Program-made: the position numbers and the translations under genes
In this document: piece after piece, positions 2,426 through 24,152 of the stretch
How the letters are laid out: every line of letters starts with the position of its first letter
How positions within the stretch are numbered: the first letter of the stretch is position 1
The notes under the pieces: generated by a model
Seen by the model: only the letters and a program-made list of their open reading frames with translations
What the model was told of the DNA's origin: nothing
The model's database searches: none
From: Vibrio alginolyticus NBRC 15630 = ATCC 17749
GTDB lineage: Bacteria > Pseudomonadota > Gammaproteobacteria > Enterobacterales > Vibrionaceae
Direction of reading: 5' to 3'
NCBI RefSeq assembly: GCF_000354175.2
Contig: NC_022349.1
Span: 2,430,001-2,462,000, forward strand
DNA length: 32,000 nt

Positions 2426-2949
2426 TACGCCACCTCGATCGCTTGCATTTTGATTAGCTCAGCGGCAGAGCGTTCCACCACGTCGCTGATGTCTCCGTCG
2501 ATACTGACGATCAGAGTTTGAGGCTCGTTGTCTGGGCGCTCTAGTGTCTCGAATTGGCTCTTCACCATGTTTTCTTTCATGAAGTGGCCTTTGCGCATAC
2601 GCATGCGATTAAGGATCAACTCCCTATCGCCATCAAGGAACAGGAAGGTCACGTTGTTGTTGCCTTCGCGGATCTGATCGCGGTAAATCTTTTTCAGTGC
2701 TGAACAGACAATAATGCCGTGTTCGTTTTTGCTTTCTAGGCTGTACGCCGCATCACGAATGCGTTCTAGCCATGGCTTGCGATCATCATCGTTCAGAGGC
2801 TGGCCCGATGCCATTTTCTGAATGTTCGCTCGTGGATGAAGATCATCACCATCAATGAATTTACGCCCTAGCTTTTTCGCTAGATGCTCACCAATTGTGC
2901 TTTTACCACTAGCACAAACGCCCATAACGATGACACTACTACCAGCCAT
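2425..2949 (-). CDS. gntK: Gluconokinase
   Basis: 174-aa ORF with P-loop GVCASGKST. The FIDGDDLHP...N..KM..G.PLNDDDR.PWL pattern is typical of GntK/IdnK. It is translationally coupled to edd. Confidence 0.9.
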   Translation of the reverse strand: MAGSSVIVMGVCASGKSTIGEHLAKKLGRKFIDGDDLHPRANIQKMASGQPLNDDDRKPWLERIRDAAYSLESKNEHGIIVCSALKKIYRDQIREGNNNVTFLFLDGDRELILNRMRMRKGHFMKENMVKSQFETLERPDNEPQTLIVSIDGDISDVVERSAAELIKMQAIEVA

Positions 2950-3024
2950 AACTTATCCTCATAACCAAATTTGCGCGTGATCTCAATTTTTGAATTCACT
3001 TTAAAATATGGGTTTATCTTATTC

Positions 3025-3053
3025 ATGTTATCGGTAACATGTTACCGGTAACT
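3025..3053. promoter_or_regulatory. Two overlapping GntR-type operator palindromes in the divergent gntK / permease promoter region
   Basis: ATGTTAtcggTAACAT (3025-3040) matches the E. coli GntR operator form ATGTTA-N4-TAACAT as I recall it. It shares its last AT with a second site, ATGTTAccggTAACtg (3039-3054), whose core gttaccggtaac is a perfect 12-bp palindrome. Confidence 0.7.
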
Positions 3054-3102
3054 GAAATAAATGTGAACCATAACACAAACAATAATTCTTAAAGGTGAAC
3101 CT

Positions 3103-4479
3103 ATGGAGCAATTAACCCAAGCCCCAGATCCTACGTTCCTACTGACGATTGCAGGCCTTGCCATTGCAGCGTTACTCGTTCTGATCATTAAACTGAAAGT
3201 CCATGCTTTTGCTTCCCTTACTATGGTGAGTTTAGGTACGGCAATCGCCACTGGCGTTCCTTCAGAGAAAGTCGTATCGACCATGATGGGCGGCTTCGGC
3301 GGCACGCTAGCTTCCGTGGCATTGCTGGTTGGTCTCGGTGCGATGATCGGTAAAATTCTTGAAGTGACTGGCGGTGCGAAAGTGCTGGCAGACACTTTGA
3401 TTGGTCGCTTTGGTAAAGAGCGCGCACCATTTGCTTTGGGCGTCGCTTCATTACTGTTTGGCTTCCCAATCTTCTTCGATGCTGGCCTTGTAGTGATGAT
3501 GCCAATCATCCTAAGTGTGGCGGCTCGTTTTGGTGGCTCACCAATTAAATACGCGTTGCCTGCAGCTGGTGCTTTTGCGGTTATGCACGCGTTTGTTCCA
3601 CCACACCCAGGTCCGGTTGCAGCGGCAGAATTCCTTGGCGCAAACATCGGTCTGCTATTGGTGGTGGGTATTTTGGTTGCTATTCCAACTTGGTACCTTG
3701 GCGCTTACCTATTTGGTTTGTACGCGGGCAAAAAATTCGATATCCCACTATCTAAAGCCTTCTTTAATGGCGAAGCGATGGTGGATGAGCGCAACGCACC
3801 AAAATTTGGCACGGTTATGACCATCCTTGTGCTGCCAGTCCTGCTAATCTGTTTGGATACGGTATTGAACACACTGGCGGTTGCGGGTGTGATTGATGGC
3901 AAAACGGCACTGGTTGAGTTCCTACGTATGCTAGGTAAAACCCCAGTTGCGTTGCTGATCACTTTGATTGTCTGTCTGGCTGTGTTTGCCAAAGACTACG
4001 GCATGGCAAAACTAGAAAAATTATGTGGTGAGTCATTGGCTCCTATCTGTGGTGTTATCCTAGTCACGGGTGCAGGTGGCATGTTTGGCGGCGTACTGCG
4101 TTCAAGTGGTATCGGTGATGCACTGGCTGACGTTCTTACAGACACAGGTATGCCTGTGATTGTGGCGGCGTTTGTGATTTCAACCTGTCTGCGTGTTGCT
4201 CAAGGCTCGGCAACCGTAGCGCTAACCACTACGGCGGCTCTTATCGCGCCGGTTGTGGCAGCATCAACAGGTTTGAGTGAACTCGACCTTTGCTTTATCG
4301 TAATCGCGATTGCGGGTGGTGCAACGGTACTGTCTCACTTCAATGACTCTGGTTTCTGGTTGGTATCTCGTCTGCTTGAGATGGATGAGAAAACCACATT
4401 AAAAACTTGGACGGTAATGGAAACGTTACTTGGCGGTATCGCGTTTATTATCGTCGCAACATTAAGCTTTATTCTTTAG
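3103..4479 (+). CDS. Gluconate:H+ symporter, GntP family
   Basis: 458-aa highly hydrophobic multi-TM ORF. Its size and sequence character fit GntT/GntU/GntP permeases. RBS aaaggtgaacct lies before the ATG. It sits between the GntR operators and eda. Confidence 0.88.
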   Translation: MEQLTQAPDPTFLLTIAGLAIAALLVLIIKLKVHAFASLTMVSLGTAIATGVPSEKVVSTMMGGFGGTLASVALLVGLGAMIGKILEVTGGAKVLADTLIGRFGKERAPFALGVASLLFGFPIFFDAGLVVMMPIILSVAARFGGSPIKYALPAAGAFAVMHAFVPPHPGPVAAAEFLGANIGLLLVVGILVAIPTWYLGAYLFGLYAGKKFDIPLSKAFFNGEAMVDERNAPKFGTVMTILVLPVLLICLDTVLNTLAVAGVIDGKTALVEFLRMLGKTPVALLITLIVCLAVFAKDYGMAKLEKLCGESLAPICGVILVTGAGGMFGGVLRSSGIGDALADVLTDTGMPVIVAAFVISTCLRVAQGSATVALTTTAALIAPVVAASTGLSELDLCFIVIAIAGGATVLSHFNDSGFWLVSRLLEMDEKTTLKTWTVMETLLGGIAFIIVATLSFIL

Positions 4480-4488
4480 AGGTTCCCC

Positions 4489-5100
4489 ATGACAACACTT
4501 GAACAACGATTAAGAGAAATCAAAATCGTCCCAGTTATCGCAATCAACGACGTAGCACACGCTCTGCCACTGGCAAAAGTGTTGGTAGAAAACGGTTTAC
4601 CATGTGCGGAAGTGACATTCCGCACCGAAGCGGCGGCGGAGTCGATTCGCATCATGCGTGAAGCGTACCCAGAACTGTTGATTGGCGCGGGCACCGTTCT
4701 GACCACAGAACAAGTCGACATCGCAATCGAAGCTGGCGTGGACTTTATCGTTAGCCCAGGCTTCAACCCAACCACAGTGAAATACTGTCAGCAACGTGGC
4801 GTGACTATCGTACCGGGTGTAAACAACCCAAGCTTGGTTGAGCAAGCGATGGAAATGGGTCTGCGTACGTTGAAGTTCTTCCCTGCTGAGCCATCAGGCG
4901 GCGTAAACATGCTGAAAGCACTCACGGCGGTTTACCCAGTGGAATTCATGCCAACAGGTGGCGTAAGCCCATCCAACGTGGAAGATTACCTAGCGCTGAA
5001 ATCGGTTGTAGCTTGTGGCGGTACGTGGATGGTGCCAACCGCAATGATGGACAACGGCGATTGGGAAGGCATTGCTGAATTGGTTCGCGCAGTTAAGTAA
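4489..5100 (+). CDS. eda: KDPG / 4-hydroxy-2-oxoglutarate aldolase
   Basis: 203-aa ORF with Eda hallmarks: VPVIAI, EVTFRT, GAGTVL, FIVSPG, and LKFFPAE (the Schiff-base Lys context). Confidence 0.93.
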   Translation: MTTLEQRLREIKIVPVIAINDVAHALPLAKVLVENGLPCAEVTFRTEAAAESIRIMREAYPELLIGAGTVLTTEQVDIAIEAGVDFIVSPGFNPTTVKYCQQRGVTIVPGVNNPSLVEQAMEMGLRTLKFFPAEPSGGVNMLKALTAVYPVEFMPTGGVSPSNVEDYLALKSVVACGGTWMVPTAMMDNGDWEGIAELVRAVK

Positions 5101-5150
5101 AACGCACAAACGGCTCCGAAATACCCCCGAACGTTAGAAAACGTGATACG

Positions 5151-5190
5151 AAAAAGGGTCATCAAGTTACTTGATGACCCTTTTTCTTTT
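5151..5190. terminator. Bidirectional rho-independent terminator between eda (+) and xapA (-)
   Basis: aaaaa-GGGTCATCAAG-tta-CTTGATGACCC-tttttcttttt. This is an 11-bp perfect stem flanked by an A-run and a T-run. Confidence 0.85.
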
Positions 5191-5205
5191 TGGAATGAAG
5201 CAGCT

Positions 5206-6030
5206 TTAGAAGTGATGCTTCATAAAGCGCTTAATAAAGCGAATGAAATCTGCTTCGGCTAGCTTCGCGCACTTCAATGTTTGAGCGTGAGACAATTCTA
5301 CATCTCCCAAGCCTTCTGCCATGTTGGTGATCGCACACACTGCCAATACGGGTAAGCCGCAATGCGCCGCAGAAATCACTTCTGGCACGACCGACATGCC
5401 CACGACATCACCACCGATGATTTGCATCATGCGGATTTCGGCTGCGGTCTCAAAGTTGGGGCCTGTGTAAGAGACAAACACGCCTTCATTGAGGTGAATG
5501 CCATTGGCTTTGCCGACTTCAAACGCTTCTGCGCGCAGGTCTTTGTCGTAAACATTGGCGAGGCTGAAGAATCTCGGGCCGTACTCTTCATCATTCGGAC
5601 CGATCATTGGCGATTCAGGCATGGTGTTGATGTGGTCATGAAATACCACCAGAGAACCGACATCAATACGCTCAGGGCGAAGGGAGCCTGCCGCGTTGGT
5701 GACGAGCAGAAACTCACAGCCCAGCTTTTTAAAGGTGCGCACGGGCGTGGTCATGACCTTCATTGAGCCGTGTTCGTAGTAGTGACCGCGACCTTTCATG
5801 CACACTACGTCTACGCCGCCCATGGTGCCAAGTACCAACTCACCAGAGTGGCCTTGCACGGTGCTAACCGGAAAGCCTTCGAGCTCTTCGTATGGAATGA
5901 CCACTTTGTCTTGTAGTTCGTCTGCCAATACGCCTAAGCCAGAGCCTAAAATAAACGCCGCTTTAGGTTGGAAGTTTGGTTTGCGTTCGCGAATGGTTTG
6001 TAGTGCGCCGATTACTGGATCGTGATTCAT
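5206..6030 (-). CDS. xapA: Purine/xanthosine nucleoside phosphorylase, trimeric PNP family (XapA/PunA type)
   Basis: It matches XapA-type sequence as I recall it throughout: AFILGSGLG, GFPVSTVQGHSGELV, CMKGRGHYYE, NAAGSL, YTGPNFETAAEIRMMQIIGGDVVGMSVVPE. I prefer the start at 6030 (MNHDPV...), which is preceded by agaaggtga. The ORF-track start at 6111 adds 27 poorly supported residues. Confidence 0.85.
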   Translation of the reverse strand: MNHDPVIGALQTIRERKPNFQPKAAFILGSGLGVLADELQDKVVIPYEELEGFPVSTVQGHSGELVLGTMGGVDVVCMKGRGHYYEHGSMKVMTTPVRTFKKLGCEFLLVTNAAGSLRPERIDVGSLVVFHDHINTMPESPMIGPNDEEYGPRFFSLANVYDKDLRAEAFEVGKANGIHLNEGVFVSYTGPNFETAAEIRMMQIIGGDVVGMSVVPEVISAAHCGLPVLAVCAITNMAEGLGDVELSHAQTLKCAKLAEADFIRFIKRFMKHHF

Positions 6031-6106
6031 GTTAGTCACCTTCTGGTTGTGTGTTGATTCCATTGTGTGACTTTCTGCGCTGGTTATCTTTGCTTTATTC
6101 GCTACT

Positions 6107-6129
6107 ATCATCCTTAAAAAGAGGATGAT
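6107..6129. promoter_or_regulatory. Inverted repeat in the xapA / LysR-regulator divergent intergenic region (candidate LysR-type binding site)
   Basis: ATCATCCT-taaaaag-AGGATGAT, with 8-bp perfect arms. It overlaps the upstream ATG ATG of the ORF-track start, which argues for the downstream start of the regulator. Confidence 0.35.
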
Positions 6130-6151
6130 GAAATTCGCTAGGACTCAATGC

Positions 6152-7057
6152 ATGAAGTCAGAACCATTTGAGCGCGTGACGCTGAAGATGCTGCGTTACT
6201 TTTACGAGGTCGCACAAACCAAGCATTTCACTAAGGCGGCCGAGAACCTCAATATCACCAATTCGCCGTTGAGCAATCGCATCAAAGAGTTGGAAGAGGT
6301 GCTTAACGTCAAACTGTTTGAGCGCGATTCAAGAAATGTCATGCTGACGGAGGCCGGGCGATTGTTGGAGTCCAAATGCCAACTGATTTTTCAGACCTTG
6401 GATGTCTCGCTCAATCAAGTGCAGCAAGTGGGGTTGAACCAGAGAAATATCCTGCGAGTTGGTGTGGTAAGTAGCGCATTTTGGGGCGGATTTGATCGTC
6501 TGTTACAGCGCTTCCATGCTGAGCATGACACTTATCACGCCGACATTTTTGACCTTAACCCAGAGACGCAAAAGAAGCATCTGAGCGAGAAGAAAATCGA
6601 TGTGGGCATTGTGCGTTTTGCTGATGCACTCAACATTTATCCGTATCAGTCGGTATCTTTGGGCAAAGATGTGTTTGTGGTGGCGGTGTCGGAGCAACAT
6701 GAGTTAGCCAGCAAATCTTTGCTGCGGCTCCAAGATTTAAAGACGTGTGAGTTTGCGTTTATGAGTTTGGCGAATTCTGCCTCGGCAAACTTCATCATCA
6801 ATGCCTGTCTGCAAGAAGGCTTTTCACCCCATATTGGCAAACAAGTGGTGGAGCCAAGCACCTTGATGGCGTATGTGGCAAACAGCAATACCGTGACGTT
6901 GGTGCCGTCGACGTTTTCTCAGCATCATTGGCATGGGATTCGTTTTATCAAGCTGAAAGAGTCACTGCGTGCAGACTTGTGTCTGATTCATGATGGTAAG
7001 CAGGAGAGTGCTATCAAAGCCGAGTTTATTCGCACGTTATTGGAGAATGCGAGTTAA
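6152..7057 (+). CDS. xapR: LysR-family transcriptional regulator, XapR-like
   Basis: N-terminal LysR HTH (LKMLRYFYEVAQTKHFTKAAENLNITNSPLSNRIKELEEVLNVKLFERDSRNVMLTEAG). It is divergent from xapA, as in E. coli xapA/xapR. The start is ambiguous (6125 or 6152). The gene symbol rests on context and remembered similarity only. Confidence 0.7.
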   Translation: MKSEPFERVTLKMLRYFYEVAQTKHFTKAAENLNITNSPLSNRIKELEEVLNVKLFERDSRNVMLTEAGRLLESKCQLIFQTLDVSLNQVQQVGLNQRNILRVGVVSSAFWGGFDRLLQRFHAEHDTYHADIFDLNPETQKKHLSEKKIDVGIVRFADALNIYPYQSVSLGKDVFVVAVSEQHELASKSLLRLQDLKTCEFAFMSLANSASANFIINACLQEGFSPHIGKQVVEPSTLMAYVANSNTVTLVPSTFSQHHWHGIRFIKLKESLRADLCLIHDGKQESAIKAEFIRTLLENAS

Positions 7058-7070
7058 GCATGGGCTAACA

Positions 7071-7098
7071 AAAAAGGTCACCCTAAGGTGACCTTTTC
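7071..7098 (+). terminator. Rho-independent terminator of the LysR-family gene
   Basis: aaaa-AGGTCACC-ctaa-GGTGACCT-tttc, starting 14 nt after the stop codon. Confidence 0.8.
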
Positions 7099-7184
7099 AA
7101 ATGATTCGCTGAAATCAGCAATGCGATTAGAGCGTAATTAACGCATCGTTACAAACTACCAACACGGGTTGTTTCTGAAATAAA

Positions 7185-7228
7185 TCTGGAAAGGTGCATA
7201 GGAAGAGGCTTTTGAGCCTTTTCCAGAA
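7185..7228 (-). terminator. Candidate ancestral gor terminator, now separated from gor by the island. Its 5' arm contains the left copy of the island direct repeat.
   Basis: Read on the minus strand: tctggaaaagg-ctcaaaagcctcttcctatgca-cctttccaga-tttatttc. The stem is about 10 bp with one bulge and is followed by a T-rich tract. Assignment to gor is inference from a reconstructed empty site. Confidence 0.4.
7219..7228. repeat. Left copy of the 10-bp direct repeat ttttccagaa (candidate att core)
   Basis: An identical 10-mer occurs at 15353-15362 in the same orientation. The two copies bracket the recombinase operon, the cargo and the AT-rich tail. Confidence 0.45.
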
Positions 7229-7442
7229 AAATTGGCTATTGGAACGATTTTTCCAAAAATCCGAACTCAACCTTACCATTATTCCAGAGTAAATCGTCCT
7301 ACTTTCCGCCTTTTGTTTTCAATAGGTACTTTTATAAGGTTGGTGGAACTATGATCAGAATCTAATGTCAGATGAAAATACGAGCAATGTGTAATTTACT
7401 GTGTAATAATTAATTTAAAGAGTCCCAGAAAGGCGTATCAAC

Positions 7443-8228
7443 ATGTCAGATTATAAGAAGTTGAACAATCACCCGTTAGAACTTGTTCTCGTAGAGGTGA
7501 GATACTCACCAATTCTAAATGTGAAGAAATACATCCCAGAACTACACGATCAACTTCGTGGAGATTTTCCGAACTTCAACACTGTAGTTGATAAAGCGGT
7601 GAACTTTAATAATGACCAAGTAGATTTTTCAAACATAGAAAGATGGCTATTTACATCCAAAGATGGTCAACGAGTTGTTGACATTGATCAGAATAGAGTC
7701 GTTTATGCAACGACTAAATACGATCGGTTTGATGGGTTTCAGGAAGATGTTCAGCAGATAGTTGAGGTCTTGAAAAATATTGTTAACCCGTCGATTTACA
7801 CTAGGGTGGGTCTACGTTATTGCGATAACATTACATCGTTAGATGGGGGGGATGCTGGATTATCAGAGTTAGTCGTTCCTCAGTTGTTGTTTGATGATAC
7901 ATTTAGCAATATCGGTCAAAAAGGCTTTAAGCGTCAAGAATACTTAATTGCAACAGGGACAACACATCTTGTAATAAGAACCGTTCAGACAGTTACGCCT
8001 AATGTCTTGCCTGAAGATCTCGTTTCAATAGGCTTAAAAGTCAAAGCAGATGAAACCGCTAAACTGAGGCTTCTTTTAGACTTTGACCACTTCTGGCAAG
8101 ATTCAAATAACCCGAAAGACTTTGAAGTTGATAATATTCTAGAAACGTTGTCTGGTTTACATGAGGCTTCGAGAGAAGCATTTTGGAATGCGACGACTCC
8201 GTACGCAAGGAATGAAATATGGTTGTAG
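7443..8228 (+). CDS. Uncharacterised protein resembling the TIGR04255 family (cargo gene 1)
   Basis: 261-aa ORF. The N-terminal PLELVLVEVRYSP and central RVGLRYCDNI resemble, from memory, the conserved N-terminal ...V.fe.rF.P and RiGLRYiN blocks of TIGR04255 proteins. I found no Walker A, HExxH or nuclease motif. Its stop overlaps the next gene's start by 10 nt. Confidence 0.6.
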   Translation: MSDYKKLNNHPLELVLVEVRYSPILNVKKYIPELHDQLRGDFPNFNTVVDKAVNFNNDQVDFSNIERWLFTSKDGQRVVDIDQNRVVYATTKYDRFDGFQEDVQQIVEVLKNIVNPSIYTRVGLRYCDNITSLDGGDAGLSELVVPQLLFDDTFSNIGQKGFKRQEYLIATGTTHLVIRTVQTVTPNVLPEDLVSIGLKVKADETAKLRLLLDFDHFWQDSNNPKDFEVDNILETLSGLHEASREAFWNATTPYARNEIWL

Positions 8229-8812
8229 CAGATCACGCATACGCTGATTATGACGTAAGTAAAATCAAAAATTTAGCGGTTTCTGGTCAGCATGCCGTTC
8301 AATCAGCAGCACATAGTACGTACCAGAGCCCTAACGCTACGGAGATTTTTGATCTTATTAATTATCGTTCAGGGCAGCATAAGTATTGGACCCATACTAA
8401 GACAGATTTCCACGACGTTCTTGTTGAAGTTAGTACGACAGACGTTTTGACAGTGTCGCCTCAACAGAATCTATTAGTCAAACGATTGAACGAGTTAAAA
8501 AGTAGCCTTGGATTAGCAGATGAAGAATTAGCGAGTATATTAAAAACAACTCGTAAAACACTTCATAATTGGCAGCAGGGCAATACCAAACCAAACAAAA
8601 CAAAATTGTTACGGTTGGTGGATCAGCATAATCTTTTGAGCAAGTGGTTAAGCAACGGATATCCAGATATCGCCACATTGGATATTGAAGAAAAGAACCA
8701 AATCTTGCATAAGTTGCAACAAGATGAAGTTGATACTGATGACGTCTTGTACTTCGGTTCTGGTTTAATGTTGACTAGTGACTTTGACGTGATCGACGAT
8801 CCCTTTGCGTAG
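8219..8812 (+). CDS. XRE-type helix-turn-helix protein with long N- and C-terminal extensions (cargo gene 2)
   Basis: 197-aa ORF. Residues ~95-135 (LGLADEELASILKTTRKTLHNWQQGNTKPNKTKLLRL) are a classic XRE/Cro-type HTH. There is no internal Met in the first ~180 residues, so the start at 8219, overlapping gene 1 (atATGGTTGTAG), is likely. The C-terminus is acidic (DFDVIDDPFA). Confidence 0.65.
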   Translation: MVVADHAYADYDVSKIKNLAVSGQHAVQSAAHSTYQSPNATEIFDLINYRSGQHKYWTHTKTDFHDVLVEVSTTDVLTVSPQQNLLVKRLNELKSSLGLADEELASILKTTRKTLHNWQQGNTKPNKTKLLRLVDQHNLLSKWLSNGYPDIATLDIEEKNQILHKLQQDEVDTDDVLYFGSGLMLTSDFDVIDDPFA

Positions 8813-8821
8813 GTAGGTGAT

Positions 8822-9658
8822 ATGAACTTTGGAAGTACTTTAGAGACCAAAGGTTGGTTGCAAGGCTGCATTATTCCAAAGGAGCAAGCTGTTGTTTTAT
8901 TGGGACATGAAAATACTACGTGCATAGATGTCAATAAGGCTGGGCTAGTAGACGATAACTTTGTGCTTGTCGTTGCCTCTCAGTCTTGTGATATAGCGAG
9001 GGATGAGGTTCCTTCGGTACAGTTGCTTGTTGCGAGGGTTATTGAAGTTAGAGACCCTCAAAAAAGTTACAACGCCCATCCTAGAATTCTTGATACTCAC
9101 GTAACTCAAGTTCGTGAAGATGGACTGCAAGAGCTTTCACTCAGAGTTAGCATATTGGAGAAAGTCTTTACTCCAAAAGAAAACCTGATTGATATTGACT
9201 ATCTTGATGGTATCTCTTGGGGTATTCAAGAAGAGAGAAGTTATAGGAACTGGTTGGGAGAACATTATGATAGGCCCGCGTTGCCAACGTCGTTTAATGA
9301 TCTTTTAAAGCGTTCTGAGAGCAAGCTAAAGAAAGCTGCGAAGCAGTCCAATGATCACCTGTATGGGATTTACATTCGCCTCAACCCAAATCGTGAGCTT
9401 TTAGAAGGTGAACGCTATGACGTACAATTATTAGGTGCACTGACTAATGATGGTGATGCTAAAACAGCTCAGGATAGAATAGAGCGTTACAAAGATATCC
9501 TTAAAGGGGCAGGTATTAATGTCACCCATGCTCTCGTTAAAGAAAAAAAACAGATTAGCATGGCTACATTGGAGGGGATGACTAGATTCCATTTGGACTA
9601 TTTGTCTTATCGGAACGATACCGAGGAATTTCCTGCCGAAGTAAGCCCCGGAATCTAG
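8822..9658 (+). CDS. Hypothetical protein with no recognisable domain (cargo gene 3)
   Basis: 278-aa ORF starting 9 nt after the gene 2 stop, with strong RBS taggtgatATG. The N-terminal region has a hydrophobic strand followed by SQSCDIARDE (residues ~48-62). The C-terminal half is charged and helical in character. I could find no known catalytic motif. Confidence 0.6.
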   Translation: MNFGSTLETKGWLQGCIIPKEQAVVLLGHENTTCIDVNKAGLVDDNFVLVVASQSCDIARDEVPSVQLLVARVIEVRDPQKSYNAHPRILDTHVTQVREDGLQELSLRVSILEKVFTPKENLIDIDYLDGISWGIQEERSYRNWLGEHYDRPALPTSFNDLLKRSESKLKKAAKQSNDHLYGIYIRLNPNRELLEGERYDVQLLGALTNDGDAKTAQDRIERYKDILKGAGINVTHALVKEKKQISMATLEGMTRFHLDYLSYRNDTEEFPAEVSPGI

Positions 9659-9733
9659 ATACAAGCACCACGTGCAACCATTTCTCACGCAGGTTGTGGC
9701 CCACACATTGAAGGTGGGCTACATTTGTTAAAG

Positions 9734-10192
9734 TTACTTGATTGGTACTACTTTACTTCGTTTCAGCTTAGCAAGCTCCTCTCGAAGCTCCGCATTTTCA
9801 TATTCAAGATCATCTATACGAGCTAATGCTTGAACCAGCTTATCGTTTAGATGGTGCTGTGCTGCCGCAAACAGAGCTAACTTCTCTCGCTCTGCCTCAT
9901 ACTTGGCCTTGTAGTTATCCTTGATGCGCTTTTGCTCTTTGAGCTTGGTGCGCACAGTCAGGATCTCTGGTTGGACTATTCCACCTTTGCCTGTCGCAAT
10001 TTCACCTTTGGTCTGTTTAACTTTTTCCACGAAATCAGGATAGTAGTAACCGCTGCCATTGCCTAAATTTGCCTCTTCCTCGACAGCCCGTACACTGAGC
10101 TTGCGGTGAGTAGGAATGCGCTTAGGTTTACCCTGTTTAATACGCTCTAGGGCTGCCTCTAGTTTCAGTAGTGTATTTTCGCTCTTACTCAT
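9734..10192 (-). CDS. ginD: Small GinD-like protein (4th gene of the recombinase operon), coiled-coil C-terminus
   Basis: 152-aa ORF whose ATG overlaps the upstream recombinase stop (ATGA). It has a basic N-terminal part and a heptad-like C-terminus (LVQALARIDDLEYENAELREELAKLKR). Its position and size fit GinD of GInts; it is analogous to the small TnpC of Tn554-type elements. Confidence 0.6.
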   Translation of the reverse strand: MSKSENTLLKLEAALERIKQGKPKRIPTHRKLSVRAVEEEANLGNGSGYYYPDFVEKVKQTKGEIATGKGGIVQPEILTVRTKLKEQKRIKDNYKAKYEAEREKLALFAAAQHHLNDKLVQALARIDDLEYENAELREELAKLKRSKVVPIK

Positions 10193-12234
10193 AAGTTGGC
10201 CGCCTTTAAGTCAGGTTCAAAAGGGGTAAAGGGCATATCAAAGTCAGCCATGACTTTTTCTGCAGCTCTTACTTGAGTGACATAGTGGCTATGTTCACTT
10301 ACCGAAAATTCTTCGCCAGATTCCATGTAAGCAACTAGACTGCGGTGCTTTTTCTGCCACCACTTAGCCTGCTGCTCGTCAATGATGCTACTTCCAGAGC
10401 CACAATCAACACAGAACTGAGGAGTGACCACACCGTCCATATCGCAGTCATAACCAGATTTGCAATAACTGTGCATTGAGCCATGTAGTGTCAACTTACC
10501 ATCCTTTACGGCTTTGTAGATAACATCCCATGAGCTATAAATAGTCGGTACATCTCCTCGCATTTTCATGATCGCTTTGCCATGAGTGCCTGATAGCGTT
10601 TCATCTGAGTGCCATTGTTTAAAGATTTTATTTGCGGTGGTTTCTGCATTGATTTCATCGAGTGTCTTTTGCACTTGCTCGTCAACTTTCAGATCCCGTA
10701 GGCTCGCCAGCCTCCCACCATTGGTGTACCACTCGGTCATCGCGAGGTATAAGTGCTTGAACTGTTGTTTGAGCGCTACTAATGTCCCTAGGCGGTTCTT
10801 AATGCAATAAAAGGCTAAAGTGCGCCTAAACTGATGAGTTGTCATGTGCCAAGGACTTCCAACCGTTACGTCTTTTTTTACACGGTTTAATGAGCGAGGG
10901 TTTGACTCAAGGCATTCTGCGAAATCCTTTTCAGTTACAATAAAATTGAATTGATTACAAAAACGTTGTAGTCGGTGATTCCATCCTGTAATCAATGTGG
11001 GGGGCTTGGAGCGGTATGATTTATTTACCCAAATCGAGTCTTTGTATTTTTTATCCGGGTAAGTGATTTCTTTGCGCCATTCTTCAGTTAATGTGGTCAT
11101 TAACTCTATTGCAGTTTTGGAAGATGAAGCTGTGACCCATGTTTCTCGCTTATTGCCTAACTTAAAAGTGTGAGATTGGAGCATATGGAAATCACGTCCT
11201 TCAAAGGTATCCTTGTAATAACTTTTAGGCGTTAATTTATCGAGTTCGGAGTCTCGCATACCGCTAAAACCTCCACAAACGATATAGCAAGCATTAGTTA
11301 TTTGACCCCAGTAGCGTTTAAAGTCCGTTCCATTGTTTAGTCTAATACTTGGTACTTTTGCGGCTAATGGAGCGATGAGGTCTTTAACTTTATGTGATTG
11401 GAACTCTTGAATTGCGGAAGTGTATTTTCGCTCGTCAATGCTACCGTCCTCATTCATGAATGAGTAGCGGTTCCCTTGCTTGATTTTTTCTTCAAGATTG
11501 CGCACTCCTTCATCATAGTTATGCTGTAGAGACTTCTCTGTATTCAAAATTAATTGTCTATATGGGTGGGCACCATTGACCAGTTCTATAGCTTTTCCAT
11601 AAATGGCATCACATATACGTTCAGGTATAACAAGAGTTTGTTGTGCTTCATTGAAACTTATCCGTCTTGCTTCAGTGCTTGATTTTATTGGATTTAGGCC
11701 AAGCTCAAGCTTGTGCCATGACTCATCATTTATGGCGGTATTTATTGCCACAAAAGTAGACTCGATGGTTCCTTGGGCATAGTTACGATTTTGCAAGAAG
11801 TGTTCAAACTTAGTCCACACAACAGGCGAACCAAGATCTTTCAACGAGCTATAGTTACTCTCCATCAAGAAACTATAAACTACCTTTATATTATTTAGTC
11901 GAGTGCGAACGCTTGAGAACTTTACTGATTTTTTCTGTTTAGGACTTTTATTAAATAGCCAACCAAAACTCAGAAGCTTAAGTTCTCGTTGTAACTTAGG
12001 AGCACATTTGAATTCCTCTGTATTTAGATTGTTCTTATCTTTCTTTCGAGAGAAAGGTAAGCAATCCCAATTGTTTTGTCCAAAGGTGGCGGTAACGTTT
12101 CCGTCTTTATCCTTGCAGATGACGACGGCATCTAGCTCTTCATATCTTCTCTCATGGTAGAGCGTAACCACATCTACATCCTTGACCTTATGCTGTTGTG
12201 GAAAGTCAGGTAAATAGAGTTTAGATGTATCCAT
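10189..12234 (-). CDS. ginC: Tyrosine recombinase-like protein, GinC-like (681 aa)
   Basis: Catalytic-domain signatures are present: GMRDSEL (box I Arg), HMTTHQFRRTLAFY (H-x-x-R), KHLYLAMTEWY (His ... Tyr nucleophile). A C-terminal H-x3-H-x2-C-x5-C-x10-C-x2-C cluster follows. The start overlaps the upstream stop (TAATG). Confidence 0.75.
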   Translation of the reverse strand: MDTSKLYLPDFPQQHKVKDVDVVTLYHERRYEELDAVVICKDKDGNVTATFGQNNWDCLPFSRKKDKNNLNTEEFKCAPKLQRELKLLSFGWLFNKSPKQKKSVKFSSVRTRLNNIKVVYSFLMESNYSSLKDLGSPVVWTKFEHFLQNRNYAQGTIESTFVAINTAINDESWHKLELGLNPIKSSTEARRISFNEAQQTLVIPERICDAIYGKAIELVNGAHPYRQLILNTEKSLQHNYDEGVRNLEEKIKQGNRYSFMNEDGSIDERKYTSAIQEFQSHKVKDLIAPLAAKVPSIRLNNGTDFKRYWGQITNACYIVCGGFSGMRDSELDKLTPKSYYKDTFEGRDFHMLQSHTFKLGNKRETWVTASSSKTAIELMTTLTEEWRKEITYPDKKYKDSIWVNKSYRSKPPTLITGWNHRLQRFCNQFNFIVTEKDFAECLESNPRSLNRVKKDVTVGSPWHMTTHQFRRTLAFYCIKNRLGTLVALKQQFKHLYLAMTEWYTNGGRLASLRDLKVDEQVQKTLDEINAETTANKIFKQWHSDETLSGTHGKAIMKMRGDVPTIYSSWDVIYKAVKDGKLTLHGSMHSYCKSGYDCDMDGVVTPQFCVDCGSGSSIIDEQQAKWWQKKHRSLVAYMESGEEFSVSEHSHYVTQVRAAEKVMADFDMPFTPFEPDLKAANL

Positions 12235-13979
12235 TATCTTACCTCGGCTGGTGATTTTGGAATTAAGCTTAAAACTGACTCGCTGTCATCCCAAGCGGGG
12301 TGCAGGCCATCATCATCGAGTTTGGTTTCTGCCTTTCTCAATATTTGTTTATTTATGTTTGGAAGTATTTTTTGATTGATAAACAGTATGATGTTTTCAA
12401 AGTTTTGTTTGTAATGGCTGACATCCAAATGAAGGAATAGTGATTCCTCAACACAGGACTTGAATGAGAGCAGGCACCAGATATCTGAGACTGACTGTAC
12501 AATCACTTGGTCAGGACAGCCAAAGCACCCCAATAGGTCTGCACAGGCTAATCGTTCTCCCTCCTTAGCAAGTCCCTGTGTTTGGGCTTTCTTGGTGTAC
12601 TTTTGGGACTTTTCACCGAATGGGGCAGCGCAGCTACCGCCATTAGAAGTACGGCTTAAATTGGGAAGGTTAATCTTGTTTTCTTCCTCGATAACCAGTA
12701 CCTCAATACTGAGGTTTTTCTGAGCCTGCTTGGTGTTGACCCTGCTCTTGACCTGCTCCTCCCGAATTGACATCGTATCTTGCATCATGCCGTTATTTGC
12801 CAGCTTATTTCCCTCGCTATAGTGACGCTTGCGGGTGTTGGGCGTGTTGTTAAGCATAAGGTTATTAACCATTTCACCTTGATGATATGAGGTTAGTTGA
12901 CAGCCTGTTTCACGAAAGCGGCTTATGCTGGGGCGTAAGCGTCTTCCCATTTGATCTGTGAAGGAAAAATGTTTTTCTACCCACTTTTTCAAAAAAGACT
13001 GAAGTCTTGAAGTCTGTAATTTTTGCACCTTTCGTGAGGCGATGGTTTGAAGAAGAGTCGCATCTTCATTTGTGCTAATTATTCTTGAAGCATTGAGTAG
13101 TTTGTCGAAAAAGGTCATGGCATACTTGGGTATTTCTAACTCGTGCTCACCTATCTCAACTTGAATAGTTTTAAATGCACGACGTTTAAAAGCGGGCATG
13201 GTATACCATGTTTCCCCTGTTGAAATTGATGCGTTATTAGGCTGCTTTAACCTAAATAAATCAGTGGTGTTAGCGTAAGTGTAATAAGCGAGTAGGTAGG
13301 TGGCTGCACACATCATCTTCGTTATGCCACCGCAAAGTTTATACTCTCTACCTTGCCATTCAAAGATCATGGTAGGCGTGCTTTTATGAGCTTGAATATG
13401 CGCTTCAGGATTTTTGATAAACTGTGAATATGTTTGATTGAAAAGACGTCTTAGAAATGGGAGTAGTTGTTTTAAATCGCTTTGAGTGTAGGATTCATAA
13501 GATTCTCTATCGCTATTATCCATGATAACCACGTTATTAAAGTAATAGTGTGGTAGATCAAGATATCGAGAAAATAGGGTGACCATATTAGCTCGTCTAT
13601 TCTTATACGTGCTACTTTTGAGTTCGCCTAGCATTACTCTGGTTTGCAAGTGTACCATATACCCTTCTAATGAGCTTTGGGTAAATGCTGGCTCGCTTTC
13701 TTTATCGCACCACCTTAGGTATTGAGAGGCTTCAACATAAATGCCATAAAGTGAGTCGTGACTAACTCCTTCATCTATTTTTTCACTAAAACTGTCTTTT
13801 AACTGAAAAACGAACGCTTCACGATCTGCAAACTTGAATTGGTTGCTTTGTTGCAACTCTTTGCTTGATGGTAACTCATTGAATAAAAGGCGGTTAAAGT
13901 CTGCTAAAAGATTGTCCCTAACATCAAGCTTGATACAGAGGTCACTCCTCCATCCAGATAAATAGGTTAGCTCAGTCAT
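12234..13979 (-). CDS. ginB: Tyrosine recombinase-like protein, GinB-like (581 aa from preferred start)
   Basis: The RLRPSISRFRETGCQ ... NNTPNTRKRHYSEG region resembles the C-terminal Arg ... Tyr part of integrases. It is followed by a Cys-rich tail (CADLLGCFGCP). The preferred start is ATG at 13979, which overlaps the ginA stop (ATGACTGA). The ORF-track start at 14024 would overlap ginA by 53 nt. Confidence 0.65.
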   Translation of the reverse strand: MTELTYLSGWRSDLCIKLDVRDNLLADFNRLLFNELPSSKELQQSNQFKFADREAFVFQLKDSFSEKIDEGVSHDSLYGIYVEASQYLRWCDKESEPAFTQSSLEGYMVHLQTRVMLGELKSSTYKNRRANMVTLFSRYLDLPHYYFNNVVIMDNSDRESYESYTQSDLKQLLPFLRRLFNQTYSQFIKNPEAHIQAHKSTPTMIFEWQGREYKLCGGITKMMCAATYLLAYYTYANTTDLFRLKQPNNASISTGETWYTMPAFKRRAFKTIQVEIGEHELEIPKYAMTFFDKLLNASRIISTNEDATLLQTIASRKVQKLQTSRLQSFLKKWVEKHFSFTDQMGRRLRPSISRFRETGCQLTSYHQGEMVNNLMLNNTPNTRKRHYSEGNKLANNGMMQDTMSIREEQVKSRVNTKQAQKNLSIEVLVIEEENKINLPNLSRTSNGGSCAAPFGEKSQKYTKKAQTQGLAKEGERLACADLLGCFGCPDQVIVQSVSDIWCLLSFKSCVEESLFLHLDVSHYKQNFENIILFINQKILPNINKQILRKAETKLDDDGLHPAWDDSESVLSLIPKSPAEVR

Positions 13980-15297
13980 CCTGACCTCGTAGCACATCGT
14001 GCATAATGGAATCGAGAATGCCAAACTTTACTTTGAACGCCTCTTTGCGTTTTAGAAAGCGTAAATACTTCCAAGTCGTACTTTCATCTTTATGCCCCAT
14101 CCAGTCCATCAGAAGCTCCATACAGTCGACAAGGGGCAATCCAGCCTCTAGCAAGTCACTGAGGCGATAGGTGCCATAGGTGGCACGTAAATCATGGAAG
14201 CGATGGGTAAATGATGGCTCTGCCTGTTTTATTTCTGTCCTGAACTCAATCCACCTAGCTTCAATGGATTTCCCCGTAGCAGGGTTGCCTTGCTGGCTAA
14301 CAAAAAGTGGTTCATGACGGTCACAGCGCTCCAGTATTTCAATGGTCTTCTGGGTGAAGGGGGGAGCATCGCTGTCTAATTGTTCTATTTTCTCGTTGAG
14401 CCTAGTAACACGCCTCAGACGGCGTTCTGAAATTCGATACTCATTCAATGATTGGAACAAGTCCGATGAAATCTCGACAGTCCGAGTCTTTAGGAACTTG
14501 GTTTGTACGCCTGTAGAGCGGGGGCATAACAGAATTTCAAAGCGATGTTGGCTCTCAGCAAGTGGAGTTGCAGTATCTAGCGCATCTAGTGTTAGGGTTG
14601 CTACTTCTTCAACCCGCATACCTGTATCAATCGCAAGCAAGGCTTGTAAGCGCAACTCTTCAGACGTTTGTGGAAGGTGCTGCGTTAAAATACCAAGAGC
14701 ATCACGGCTTAGTGGAGATAGTGGCTTGATGTTTTTACTATCGGCATCCCTCGGTACTTTTATGCGTAAATCACTGGTCTCAACAATGAAAGTTGGAGAT
14801 ACGTGGGCAAGCATCCCACGATTCTGAACTGAGACGAACTCCATTTTGAATGGCGCTTCCTTCTCACTCTTTACGCTTAAGTAACCACCATGCATCAACC
14901 ATTTATAGTAGTTGACGATTTGGTTCATACGAACACTGGCTGTGCTATGTGCAAGTTCGCCTTGTTTTATTTTCTTGAGTAGGTAGGAGCGGAACAGGTA
15001 AGTTGGCTTTAGCCGTTTGACTGGTGGGAATTTATCCCAATTCAACCCCTTGTCCTCAAGAAATTGATAGTAGGCACGCAATGCCTGTGCGCAGGGAGAT
15101 AGGTCTTCTGCTTTCTTTACGACCTTGAGATAAAACAGGTAACTGTTGGCTTCGTGATTGAAGATGCCATCTTGCGAAAAGAGTGTTGGTAACGAACCGA
15201 TATTGTCATTGGAAGGTTGGCAATGGAATGTACCATCATCCAGTTTTTGTAGTTCAGTCTCTTTGAAGACATCGCTGGAGTGTACAAGGTATGTCAT
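13972..15297 (-). CDS. ginA: Tyrosine recombinase / phage-integrase family protein, GinA-like (441 aa)
   Basis: Canonical motifs are present: TGMRVEEVATL (box I Arg), HRFHDLRATYGT (H-x-x-R), MGHKDESTTWKYL (His ... Tyr). RBS cAGGAtgatttATG. It is the first gene of a four-gene overlapping operon. Confidence 0.85.
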   Translation of the reverse strand: MTYLVHSSDVFKETELQKLDDGTFHCQPSNDNIGSLPTLFSQDGIFNHEANSYLFYLKVVKKAEDLSPCAQALRAYYQFLEDKGLNWDKFPPVKRLKPTYLFRSYLLKKIKQGELAHSTASVRMNQIVNYYKWLMHGGYLSVKSEKEAPFKMEFVSVQNRGMLAHVSPTFIVETSDLRIKVPRDADSKNIKPLSPLSRDALGILTQHLPQTSEELRLQALLAIDTGMRVEEVATLTLDALDTATPLAESQHRFEILLCPRSTGVQTKFLKTRTVEISSDLFQSLNEYRISERRLRRVTRLNEKIEQLDSDAPPFTQKTIEILERCDRHEPLFVSQQGNPATGKSIEARWIEFRTEIKQAEPSFTHRFHDLRATYGTYRLSDLLEAGLPLVDCMELLMDWMGHKDESTTWKYLRFLKRKEAFKVKFGILDSIMHDVLRGQDD

Positions 15298-15313
15298 AAA
15301 TCATCCTGAAAGT

Positions 15314-15346
15314 ATCACTGTCCATACATACAGCATAGACAGTGAT
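15314..15346. promoter_or_regulatory. Perfect 9-bp inverted repeat 17-49 nt upstream of ginA (candidate operator or recombinase site)
   Basis: ATCACTGTC-catacatacagcata-GACAGTGAT, lying between the ginA start and the right direct repeat. Confidence 0.35.
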
Positions 15347-15352
15347 TAATTA

Positions 15353-15362
15353 TTTTCCAGAA
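15353..15362. repeat. Right copy of the 10-bp direct repeat ttttccagaa (candidate att core)
   Basis: Identical to 7219-7228. It lies 31 nt from the gor stop codon. Confidence 0.45.
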
Positions 15363-15393
15363 TTATTTACGTGTGTAAGATGCTTTTCCTACA

Positions 15394-16752
15394 CTAACCC
15401 CTCATGGTAACGAACTCTTCAGAGCCCGTTGGGTGGATAGCCACAACAGAGTCGAAGTCTGCTTTGGTTGCGCCCATCTTCATTGCTACGCCGAAGCCTT
15501 GGATCATTTCATCTACCGTGAAACCGATGCCGTGTAGGCCAACAACCGTTTCTTCTTCGCCCGCACATACAAGCTTCATCTTACATGGTTGACGGTGCTT
15601 AGTAACAGCGGTGTACATCGCAGTAAAGCCAGATGTGTAGACTTTGATGTTGTCTTTGCCGTACTTCTCTTCTGCTTCTTGCGTTGTTAGACCGATAGTG
15701 CCGATTGGTGGGTGGCTAAATACCACAGTTGGTACCAAATCGTAGTCCATCTTCGCGTTTGGTTTGTTGTTGAAAAGACGCTCAGAAAGTTGACGACCCG
15801 CTTTCACTGCTACTGGTGTTAGTTCGATACCGCCTTCCATGATGTCACCCACACAGTAGATGCCTTTCACGTTAGTTTCTTGGTATTCGTCTACCTTGAT
15901 GTAGCCTTTTTCGTTCGTTGCCACGCCGGTTGACGCTAGGTTGATTGCGTCTGTCGCAGGGTGACGACCGATTGCCCAAATCAGTTGGTCAACGTTTTGG
16001 CTTTCACCGTTTTCTAGGTGCAGAGTTAGGCTGCCATCGGCTTCTTTTACCACTTCTTTTGGTACAGAGTGGGTGTGCAGTTTTGGACCTTCTGCGTCCA
16101 TCACTTCAACCAACGTATCGATGATCATTGGATCGAAGCTACGTAGTGGTGACTCTTTACGTACGAACAGGTGCGTTTCTGTACCTAGCGCGTGCAGTAC
16201 GCCAGCAATTTCAACTGCGATGTAGCCTGCGCCCACAACCGCAACGCGTTTTGGTTGCTCTGCTAGGTCGAAGAAGCCGTTTGAATCGATGCCGTATTCA
16301 GCGCCTGGAATGTTCGGAATAGTAGGACGACCACCAACCGCGATCAGGATGTGATCTGCTGTGTAGTGTTCACCGTTTACTTCGACAGTTTTTTCGTCAA
16401 CAAACTTAGCAAAGCCTTTAATCACGTTTACTTTGTTGTTGCCAAGAACGCGATCGTAAGATTGGTGAATACGACCAATGTACGCCTGACGGCTCTCAAC
16501 TAGTTTGCTCCAGTTGAAACCTTTCACGTCGACATCAAAACCGTAATCTTCTGCGTACAGGTTCATTGCTTCTGCGATTTGCGCGCCATGCCACATCACT
16601 TTTTTCGGTACACAACCTACGTTGACACAGGTACCGCCAAGGTCTTGAGCTTCGATTAGCGCAACTTTCGCGCCGTACATCGCCGCACGGTTTGCAGATG
16701 CGATGCCGCCACTGCCGCCACCGATACAGATATAGTCAAAATGAGTCGCCAT
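15394..16752 (-). CDS. gor: Glutathione-disulfide reductase
   Basis: FAD motif IGGGSGG, redox-active [14 protein letters not shown]-terminal [12 protein letters not shown]. The preferred start is ATG at 16752 (MATHFDY), preceded by GGAGAAAGTA. The ORF-track start is a TTG four codons upstream. Confidence 0.95.
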
Positions 16753-16958
16753 TACTTTCTCCAAGAGCTTATAAATTTTATCTGGTACATAGATAGATTG
16801 GGATGACCTTGTCCGAACTCAATGCCACCGTTATCCCACTATCATAAATCGAATTCGACTAATTCCTAAATGGGAAAAAGCGACAATACTTATGACAAAT
16901 AGCGATGAGAGGCACAAAAAGAAGAATAAGCACGATTGGAGGGAGAAGGTGAGAGCAT

Positions 16959-16987
16959 AAAAAAGCGCAACGAGAATATCGTTGCGC
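16959..16987 (-). terminator. Rho-independent terminator of rlmJ
   Basis: On the minus strand: GCGCAACG-atattct-CGTTGCGC-tttttt, about 25 nt after the rlmJ stop. Confidence 0.8.
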
Positions 16988-17011
16988 TTGAAGATAGCAG
17001 TACTGAAGTGC

Positions 17012-17851
17012 TTACTCTGGCACAATCCAGTCCACTTTCCAGTGGCCAGTTGCTGGTGCGATCGCGTCTTGCAGGAATGGCAGAATCTCTTTCATCTGGC
17101 TTTCCAGTTTCCATGGCGGGTTAATCACAATCATGCCGGATGCCGTCATGCCGCGCTCGTTGGTATCTGGTGCAACACCTAACTCGATTTGCAGAATTTT
17201 ACGAATGCCCAGTGCTTCCAAGCCTTCGATCATATCTTCGATGTCGTGGCGGTTTACCACTGGGTACCAAATCGCGTAGATACCGGTTGCCCAACGTTTA
17301 TGGCTCTGATGAATCGCTCGCACCACATCGCGGTACTCTTTCGCGAGTTCGTATGGTGGGTCAATCAGCACCAAACCACGACGCTCTTGTGGCGGTAAGC
17401 TTGCTTTGAGGCGTTGGAATCCGTCTTCTTTGAAGATGCTCACTTGGCGATCACGATGGAATTCTTGCTCTAACAATGGGTGATCGGCCGGGTGCAACTC
17501 GGTCAGCACCATACGATCTTGTGGGCGGATTTGCGCGCGCGCTACACGTGGTGAGCCTGGGTAGTAACGCAGCTTCTCGCCATTGTTGAGCACTTTAATG
17601 GCATCGATGTAGCTTTTGATGTCTTCAGGAATGCTTGGGTTATCCCAAATACGTGCGATGCCTTGTTTGTATTCGCCCGTTTTTTCAGACCATTCGTGAG
17701 TCAGATCGTAACGGCCCACACCCGAGTGGGTATCGTGATAAACGAATGGCTTATCTTTTTGTTTCAGCGCATCAAGAATGAGGCTTTGAACGATGTGTTT
17801 GACCACGTCGGCATGGTTGCCAGCGTGGAAGCTGTGGCGGTAACTTAACAA
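17012..17851 (-). CDS. rlmJ: 23S rRNA (adenine2030-N6)-methyltransferase
   Basis: From the TTG at 17851 the protein begins MLSYRHSFHAGNHADV, as I recall for E. coli RlmJ (YhiR). It has a DPPYE motif and is ~279 aa. It lies between gor and prlC, as in E. coli. Confidence 0.88.
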   Translation of the reverse strand: MLSYRHSFHAGNHADVVKHIVQSLILDALKQKDKPFVYHDTHSGVGRYDLTHEWSEKTGEYKQGIARIWDNPSIPEDIKSYIDAIKVLNNGEKLRYYPGSPRVARAQIRPQDRMVLTELHPADHPLLEQEFHRDRQVSIFKEDGFQRLKASLPPQERRGLVLIDPPYELAKEYRDVVRAIHQSHKRWATGIYAIWYPVVNRHDIEDMIEGLEALGIRKILQIELGVAPDTNERGMTASGMIVINPPWKLESQMKEILPFLQDAIAPATGHWKVDWIVPE

Positions 17852-18250
17852 ATTAAACTCTCGAAACACTCTTTGGCTGAGTGTGGTCTGTGATTTTCAC
17901 TCTATGGCGGTATTATACTCAAGTAACTTAAAGATGTAGAACTTCCAATCAAATCTGTTCCTCTGATAAGGGGACGCTATTGAAATTTCTTTAAGTCACC
18001 CACACTTACTATTGGTAATCGAATTGAACTAGGTGAGTTTCTCGCACTCAAAAGGGTGTGAAATCTCATTTAGGTATAACAAGACTCAAGGACAGAGTAG
18101 CGCTGGTTGACTATAAGATGGTCATCGCGGCATAGAGAAAGGGAACGGAGCTCCCCCAATCCATGTTGCTGGCTCGTCTGTACATTGAGTTGGCCTATCT
18201 ACACAAAATAGACAGGCAATCACAGAGTCAAAACACAAAAGGAATTATTC

Positions 18251-20293: not shown

Positions 20294-20300
20294 ATTGAGC

Positions 20301-20340
20301 AAAAAACATCAAGGCCAACCGTTCAGTTGGCCTTTTTTGT
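20301..20340. terminator. Bidirectional terminator between prlC (+) and asnC (-)
   Basis: aaaaaacatc-AAGGCCAAC-cgttca-GTTGGCCTT-ttttgt, with a 9-bp perfect stem. Confidence 0.85.
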
Positions 20341-20359
20341 ACATTTTTTATAAAAAATT

Positions 20360-20824: not shown

Positions 20825-20937
20825 ACTATGATTTCCGTTAGGGATAGAGTTTTACCTCCCTTTTATACTCATAGCGGATAGGATTCACAAGGTTTGGCAG
20901 GAGTAACTGCGGGTTAACTCCGAGCTATGGAGATAAT

Positions 20938-24063: not shown

Positions 24064-24095
24064 CCTCTTCGTAGCAAGCTCAACCTAGCATTAAT

Positions 24096-24139
24096 AGGTA
24101 ACTTAGGTATACACTCAGCGCCAGTTACCTCGATTTTTA
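24096..24139 (+). terminator. Candidate terminator after the GGDEF-EAL gene
   Basis: AGGTAACT-19 nt loop-AGTTACCT-cgattttta. The large loop lowers confidence. Confidence 0.4.
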
Positions 24140-24152
24140 TTGGAGCCTCCTT

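Follow-up and report, generated by a model that had tools for sequence, protein, structure and literature searches.

The recombinase island at the 3' end of gor in Vibrio alginolyticus ATCC 17749 is almost certainly the published element SE-ValAT17749, and not a GInt

Where does the recombinase-bearing island next to gor in Vibrio alginolyticus NBRC 15630 = ATCC 17749 begin and end, to which family of mobile elements does it belong, and does it still move? These questions are raised by a window of 32,000 nucleotides (NC_022349.1, positions 2,430,001 to 2,462,000; coordinates below are those of the window unless stated otherwise), in which seven open reading frames (ORFs), three on the plus strand and four on the minus strand, lie between a LysR/xapR-like regulator gene and gor, the gene for glutathione-disulfide reductase. 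An initial annotation, made from the sequence alone, had described this region as a GInt-type island. Much of that description holds: the island is compact, horizontally acquired and site-specific, and consists of a tyrosine-recombinase operon of four genes, a small cargo and an AT-rich far end. The family, however, is another one. The island at 7157-15409 is almost certainly SE-ValAT17749, a published integrative element of the strand-biased circularizing kind (SE) from V. alginolyticus ATCC 17749 located in the 3' end of gor. The island exists and is mobile, yet does not belong to the GInts; its anatomy, ends, family membership and match to the published element are established in the present analysis.

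In length, G+C content, Tfp and Srap coordinates, circle junction and host locus, no difference was detected between the island and SE-ValAT17749 as documented by Idola et al. (2023, Mobile DNA 14:7, PMC10214605). Alignment of occupied with empty sites places the ends of the element at 7157 and 15409, which gives 8253 bp with a G+C content of 41.597%; the published entry (Additional file 8) reads NC_022349.1 2437157-2445409, 8253 bp and 41.597% G+C. The published tfp (2442234-2443979) and srap (2439734-2440192) correspond to the window coordinates plus a constant offset of 2,430,000, and their products are listed as Tfp WP_017821119.1 and Srap WP_017821121.1 (Additional files 3 and 8). The dominant amplicon of the circular junction, attS, reported for ATCC 17749 (422,125 copies; Additional file 9) carries window 15357-15416 as its first 60 bases and 7154-7214 as its last 61 bases, and the stretch ...GGTA ACGAAC TACCAAC... 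that it contains equals the junction predicted here from motif C, the hexamer ACGAAC and motif C'. This read resumes inside an AACT shared at 7154-7157, and the exact end was placed at 7157 because of the empty-site alignment, the published length of 8253 bp being that of 7157-15409. The initial annotation had set the ends at 7219 and 15362; the true ends lie 62 bp to the left of the first and 47 bp to the right of the second. Its observation that the island is more AT-rich than its surroundings was borne out (41.6% G+C, as against 47.1% in the flanks), the G+C profile running at 36-46% across the island region and at 45-54% outside.

The island had been thought to interrupt a pair of convergent genes. 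The flanking LysR/xapR-like gene (6125-7057, plus strand; Pfam/NCBIfam) and gor (15394-16752, minus strand; NCBIfam NF004776, 1.4e-231) are indeed convergent, but the insertion lies inside the last codons of gor and not between the two genes. For gor, the start at 16752 (452 aa) was deduced from the gene calls of loci L006 and L015, transferred by offset. As a result of the insertion, the native C-terminus ...VTMR* reads ...VTMRG*, with the new codons and the stop supplied by motif C; gor stays intact because motif C mimics the displaced gor codons. Motif C, the terminal motif at the left, intA-proximal end, occupies 15390-15409 (minus strand), with a 14-bp core at 15396-15409; it provides the gor stop codon (15394-15396) and is spanned by the published attS read. 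Its counterpart at the right end, motif C', occupies 7157-7176 (minus strand), with a 14-bp core at 7157-7170 that reads TACCAACACGGGTT on the plus strand. Motif C, TACCATGAGGGGTT, and the reverse complement of motif C', TACCAACACGGGTT, are imperfect inverted repeats with 11 of 14 positions matching.

Comparison of empty and occupied sites resolves the attachment sites, given here in element orientation. The empty site, attB, reads GGCTCTGAAGA-GTTCGT-AACGATGCGTTAA; attL reads ...GAAGA-GTTCGT-TACCATGAGGGGTT, and attR reads AACCCGTGTTGGTA-GTTTGT-AACGATGCGTTAA. The 6-bp spacer of attL (15410-15415, minus strand) is the central hexamer of attB, and it is this hexamer that is copied into attS. The 6-bp spacer or footprint of attR (7151-7156, minus strand), defined by the empty-site alignment, lies between motif C' and the displaced native 3' end of gor at 7140-7150 (TTAACGCATCGTT...). 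A split attB kept in attL and attR, imperfect inverted ends, and a 6-bp spacer between them were thus all found, and the same three features define SE termini according to Idola et al. (PMC10214605). The attR spacer GTTTGT differs from the GTTCGT of attB, which fits the published SE model. Where gor has a TTT codon at this position, as in L002 and L025, its hexamer is likewise GTTTGT, which would be consistent with an earlier residence of the element in another gor allele.

The genetic organization of the core points to the same family. Four collinear minus-strand ORFs are chained by the stop/start overlaps ATGACTGA, TAATG and ATGA, all of which are present as first described. The first, intA (13972-15297), encodes an ordinary-size tyrosine recombinase of 441 aa (Pfam Phage_integrase, 3.3e-11). 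It is followed by tfp (12234-13979), which encodes a recombinase-fold protein lacking the catalytic set, of 581 aa from the ATG at 13979; its ORF reaches a TTG at 14024 (12234-14024, 596 aa). The third gene, intB (10189-12234), encodes a large tyrosine recombinase of 681 aa, and the fourth, srap (9734-10192), a small coiled-coil recombination accessory protein of 152 aa. Each protein was aligned with its recovered homologues plus the corresponding protein of SE-6283. The residues R (G-x-R-x-x-E), K, H-x-x-R, H and Y were invariant in IntA (eight homologues) and IntB (seven homologues), while Tfp retains only SRFR and Y-x-x-GN remnants, plus a weak SAM-like N-terminal match, and no significant Pfam match was obtained for Tfp or IntB. 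These alignments agree with the recombinase boxes initially noticed in genes 1 and 3 and with the weaker gene 2, and weak coiled-coil matches at the C-terminus of Srap agree with the coiled-coil protein reported for gene 4. In SEs, the order is intA (catalytic), tfp (non-catalytic), intB (large, catalytic) and srap, according to Idola et al. (2023, PMC10214605), and catalytic proteins at positions 1 and 3, with a degenerate protein at 2 and a small one at 4, reproduce the SE-6283 pattern.

This order separates the island from GInts. In the ginABCD operon of the latter, the full motif is found in GinA and GinB, and GinC lacks the first Arg (Bardaji et al. 2017, PMC5385486). Accordingly, plasmid pPAD8 carries a GInt in which Pfam Phage_integrase was detected only at positions 1 and 2, whereas in SE-6283 it was detected at positions 1 and 3. 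For protein comparisons, SE-6283 was taken from plasmid pSEA1 (L012; NZ_LC081338.1), where it was located by a tblastn match. GInt references comprised two full GinC and GinD proteins, plus the GinA, GinB and GinC fragments of P. stutzeri DSM4166 given in Bardaji Figure S1; two plasmid GInts were found with the GinB fragment of that figure, one of which, pT75-VIM, is truncated by an insertion sequence (IS). BLASTP matched the four window proteins, position for position, to IntA, Tfp, IntB and Srap of SE-6283 (2.6e-24, 6e-5, 4e-19 and 0.04), and returned no match below 0.1 to GinA-D. Profile hidden Markov models (hmmbuild and hmmsearch) built from the window's own clade, SE-6283 excluded, gave 123, 87, 124 and 32 bits for the same four proteins, against at most 13 bits for all GInt proteins. 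The contrast holds for Tfp and Srap: Tfp and GinC gave a BLASTP E-value of at least 2, Srap and GinD no match at E <=10, and the corresponding profiles only 0.2-4.4 bits (Tfp, 87 bits to SE-6283 Tfp versus 0.2 bits to GinC; Srap, 32 bits, 8e-11, to SE-6283 Srap versus at most 4.4 bits to GinD); IntB scored -3.5 bits against GinB. Tfp and Srap are therefore orthologous to their SE-6283/SE-6945 counterparts on these profile scores, and are the same proteins as those listed for SEs. Idola et al. rely on tfp-srap synteny to recognize SEs and on the GinC-GinD pair to recognize GInts.

What had favoured a GInt, a ginABCD island, is a broad resemblance: an operon, cargo, an AT-rich far end, site-specific insertion at a gene end, and imperfect flanking repeats. 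GInts, such as the ssb-associated one on the P. aeruginosa plasmid pPAD8 (L014), likewise have a recombination operon of four genes, three for integrase-like proteins and one for a small protein, and then cargo and an AT-rich end; they insert at gene ends, and some of them leave no empty site (PMC5385486). The tripartite layout (operon, cargo of at least 2.5 kb, short AT-rich end) and the imperfect direct repeats are present in the island, but they do not discriminate because SEs share this layout. There is also a faint profile match of IntA to GinA (13 bits). On the other side stand the catalytic order and the lack of significant similarity of proteins 2, 3 and 4 to GinC, GinB and GinD, nothing being detected beyond a generic integrase fold, together with differences in host range and a larger published median size of GInts. 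According to Idola et al. (PMC10214605), Tfp and GinC, as well as Srap and GinD, fall into separate Markov clustering (MCL) groups, and this element is listed among the SEs. A GInt is thus refuted at the family level and is a very improbable reading. The comparison with GinA-D, which the initial annotation had itself proposed as a check, pairs the window proteins with SE-6283, an outcome close in spirit to the one it had named as refuting its view.

The closest described relatives to set beside SE-ValAT17749 are SE-6283 (Tn6283) and SE-6945 of Vibrio alfacsensis (Nonaka et al., PMC9345347), which have the same intA-tfp-intB-srap order with overlapping genes and catalytic residues in IntA and IntB only, and share imperfect inverted ends, a 6-bp spacer and site-specific insertion. 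SE-6283 has bcp as its target and brings along a copy of it; the window element has gor as its target and restores the gor end. As to differences, amino-acid identity is only 22-24%, Tfp is much shorter here (581-596 aa versus 773), and target gene and cargo differ.

A Tn554-like or RIT-like tyrosine-recombinase transposon was also considered, and its probability is negligible. With Tn554 of Staphylococcus, the element has in common a pair of recombinases, one of ordinary size and one large, as well as a small third protein (TnpC is described as structurally like Srap), target specificity and a 6-bp footprint. Against this, nothing corresponding to Tfp exists in Tn554, whose known hosts are confined to Staphylococcus and Enterococcus, in the Firmicutes; the arrangement tnpA-tnpB-tnpC, known here by description, is not that of the island, in which tfp separates the two recombinase genes. 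As for RIT elements, the three large proteins of the island have 441, 581 and 681 aa, the second of them lacks the catalytic set, and the ends measure 14-20 bp. Descriptions of both groups, by which alone they are set apart here, do not fit four genes with 14-20-bp ends.

Whether SE-ValAT17749 still moves is addressed by published data. Outward-facing polymerase chain reaction (PCR) for a circular form, as suggested in the initial annotation, had already been performed on ATCC 17749: PCR and deep sequencing detected the circle (attS), but no empty attB, which is an SE-type outcome rather than classical excision (Idola et al., PMC10214605). Top-strand reads numbered 422,125 versus 42 for the bottom strand, the latter thus representing <0.01%, a bias of about 10,000:1, and the behaviour reported for SEs is the copying out of a single strand with no empty site left behind. 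In the mechanism proposed there, IntA and IntB as catalytic proteins, the non-catalytic Tfp and the coiled-coil Srap, to which individual roles are here assigned by inference, would act on the imperfect inverted motifs C and C'. Recombination between attL and attR would exchange essentially the top strand only, giving a nicked double-stranded circle (attS) in which the 6 bp left of motif C are included, and no empty donor site would remain, as in a copy-out-like route. Upon integration, the attB hexamer would be retained at attL, and the hexamer brought in by the circle would end up at attR. The window fits this model, its attL hexamer being that of attB (GTTCGT) and its attR hexamer (GTTTGT) being different.

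An inert remnant, in the sense of an integrase island that has decayed and lost its mobility, would agree with the lack of mobilization genes, and with the finding that the contigs with the exact PrlC protein include no SE-free V. alginolyticus locus: every contig with that allele carries the island, as a fixed clonal marker would. Such decay is nevertheless hardly conceivable for an element in which the four core ORFs are all intact and coupled, both ends are intact, and the circular joint was detected in ATCC 17749 by published PCR and deep sequencing; for this particular member, the evidence of mobility is circle formation.

Several points weigh against the identification of the island as the mobile element SE-ValAT17749. 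Pairwise similarity between the window Srap and that of SE-6283 is weak (E 0.04) and becomes clear only with the profile. IntB has no Pfam Phage_integrase match at E<0.01, and its assignment as catalytic comes from the alignment to SE-6283 IntB and the conserved residues. Identity with the NC_022349.1 record was derived from agreement in coordinates, length and G+C rather than from a record-to-record alignment. Finally, copy-out is the route of a published model, which would require a step that removes the covalent recombinase-DNA link.

The use of gor as an integration site is not limited to ATCC 17749. Empty sites, anticipated in relatives, were found in seven of ten contexts encoding the exact LysR protein, with gor 80 bp downstream; of the remaining three, L006 holds the same island, L002 has another four-gene element in that position, and L010 is rearranged. 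In the last (L010:11000-20933), the gene for the identical LysR protein is followed by a pentapeptide-repeat gene, an IS4-type transposase gene (DDE_Tnp_1), a 29-aa LysR fragment and several regulator and transporter genes instead of gor; here the locus has been rearranged or disrupted by an IS. In a set of 80 species-representative gor loci, an intA-tfp-intB-srap module directly follows gor in five, namely those of V. mytili, V. tetraodonis, V. ostreicida, V. aestuarianus and Shewanella waksmanii. Their modules show 28%-86% protein identity to the window and share the junction GT|TAC(C/T)ATG and the in-frame stop; this junction is also seen in the Enterobacter and Proteus SEs presented in Additional file 6 of Idola et al. 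(PMC10214605). SE modules lie about 100-170 bp after the gor stop in L017, L025, L029, L034 and L094, and an SE is also found at gor in L002. Two sublineages of gor-using SEs are only about 30-38% identical at the protein level, and gor ends in VTM*, VTMRG* or VTMTG*. The gor 3' end is thus a recurrent SE target across Vibrio and Shewanella.

Another SE at gor, in a V. parahaemolyticus-like genome (L103), has a mosaic relationship to SE-ValAT17749. Over 9700-17960 of this locus, compared with window 7117-15409, the same cargo and right end are 97-99.6% identical at the nucleotide level, the core operon only 63-74%, with the transition located within srap; the flanks of L103 are 98-99% identical to an empty-site locus of V. 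parahaemolyticus type (L001). This pattern suggests that cargo and end modules may be exchanged between SE lineages at one target site. The attR spacers all differ (GTTTGT in the window, TGCAGT in L103 and GAATGT in L002), and because of these different hexamers, comparison of the three sequences indicates that their elements would represent separate integrations, with module exchange between gor-site SE lineages. Another explanation, a single recombination tract transferring left flank, attR end and cargo together (window 618-9617 is 96-99.6% identical to L103), was not adopted because the attR spacer in the middle of this tract differs at five of six positions (GTTTGT versus TGCAGT).

Other conserved features were found within the non-coding ends of the element. 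The right end is an AT-rich non-coding region (7157-7442). It contains a cluster of TCTGGAAA-like sites close to motif C', at 7185-7192 (plus strand), 7220-7227 (minus), 7250-7257 (minus, one mismatch) and 7281-7288 (minus, one mismatch), the three same-strand sites being about 30 bp apart. A single subterminal TCTGGAAA site is present at the motif C (intA) end (15354-15361, minus strand). The 32-kb window has three exact copies, each no more than about 70 bp away from an SE end; the overall TCTGGAAA count in the window is not enriched. Distant SEs that target gor have kept the motif in their attL ends. From this placement and conservation, these sites are probably accessory (arm-type) protein-binding sites. 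The TTTTCCAGAA copies near 7221 and 15354, initially taken as direct repeats at the island ends, are likewise internal subterminal motifs and not att repeats. Between motif C and the start of intA is an inverted repeat with a 9-bp stem (15314-15346, minus strand), whose structure is kept, with a different sequence, in other gor-targeting SEs, and which could be an operator or regulatory site. Rfam gave no match in the window.

A further observation concerns the C-terminus of IntB (10189-10600, minus strand), in which conserved cysteines occur past the catalytic tyrosine (HSYCKSGYDCDM...CVDCGS), three of them invariant in seven aligned sequences. This cluster may form a zinc-binding module; no mention of it was found in the SE literature, as far as its text was available.

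The cargo comprises three plus-strand genes. Gene A (7443-8228) encodes a 261-aa protein of the TIGR04255 family (NCBIfam, 2e-43) with no PDB sequence match. Gene B (8219-8812) encodes a 197-aa protein with a C-terminal XRE-type helix-turn-helix (HTH) domain (Pfam HTH_19, 5.9e-8), to which its PADLOC RmrA matches are limited. Gene C (8822-9658), which travels with A and B, encodes a 278-aa protein with no family assignment, whose predicted structure (pLDDT 85) has no PDB fold match in Foldseek. Taken together, the three products had no match of note in PADLOC, PDB sequences or Foldseek. The A-B-C order is kept in unrelated genomes, of Psychrobacter, Alteromonadaceae and Tatlockia (L097-L102), in all cases outside SEs; the module adjoins an nSTAND1 NTPase gene in Alteromonadaceae and a PriCT_2 primase gene in Tatlockia. 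A tentative proposal, which we consider rather doubtful as a whole, is that the A-B-C genes travel together between Vibrio, Psychrobacter, Alteromonadaceae and Legionellales, perhaps as a defence or addiction system not characterized so far, and that gor-targeting SEs swap cargo by recombination. No description of the A-B-C module or of cargo exchange among gor-targeting SEs was found in the literature. Similarly, the target-gene name gor (by term searches), the subterminal TCTGGAAA sites and the cargo module were not found in the available parts of Idola et al. 2023 (PMC10214605).

In the surrounding chromosome, the LysR/xapR-like gene is preceded by xapA (5206-6111, minus strand; Pfam/NCBIfam). 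Around the insertion site, the similarity to V. parahaemolyticus is unusually high. Window 618-7157 is 96-99% identical to the V. parahaemolyticus locus L001 over the left 6.5 kb, from edd to xapR. To the right (window 15403-25297), identity is 95-96% in gor, then 89-92%, and 70-84% further right; at the far left, as seen in L006, identity to V. parahaemolyticus falls to 78-79%. This profile may reflect an interspecies recombination tract around the attB region. Upstream of edd, window 1-611 holds 3.4 tandem copies of a 179-bp unit (87% matches). The array is absent from V. parahaemolyticus loci, where SMR genes directly precede edd, and has more copies in L006, left of the window start.

As an element already named, delimited and laboratory-tested, SE-ValAT17749 adds nothing new itself. 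Its locus nevertheless offers modest leads for SE biology: the recurrent gor target, the 6-bp footprints of what appear to be separate integrations, the TCTGGAAA sites, the L103 mosaic and the orphan cargo module. It also illustrates how SEs and GInts look alike in raw sequence, yet form separate families with different published behaviour, the simplest discriminator between them being which two of the three large proteins carry catalytic residues.

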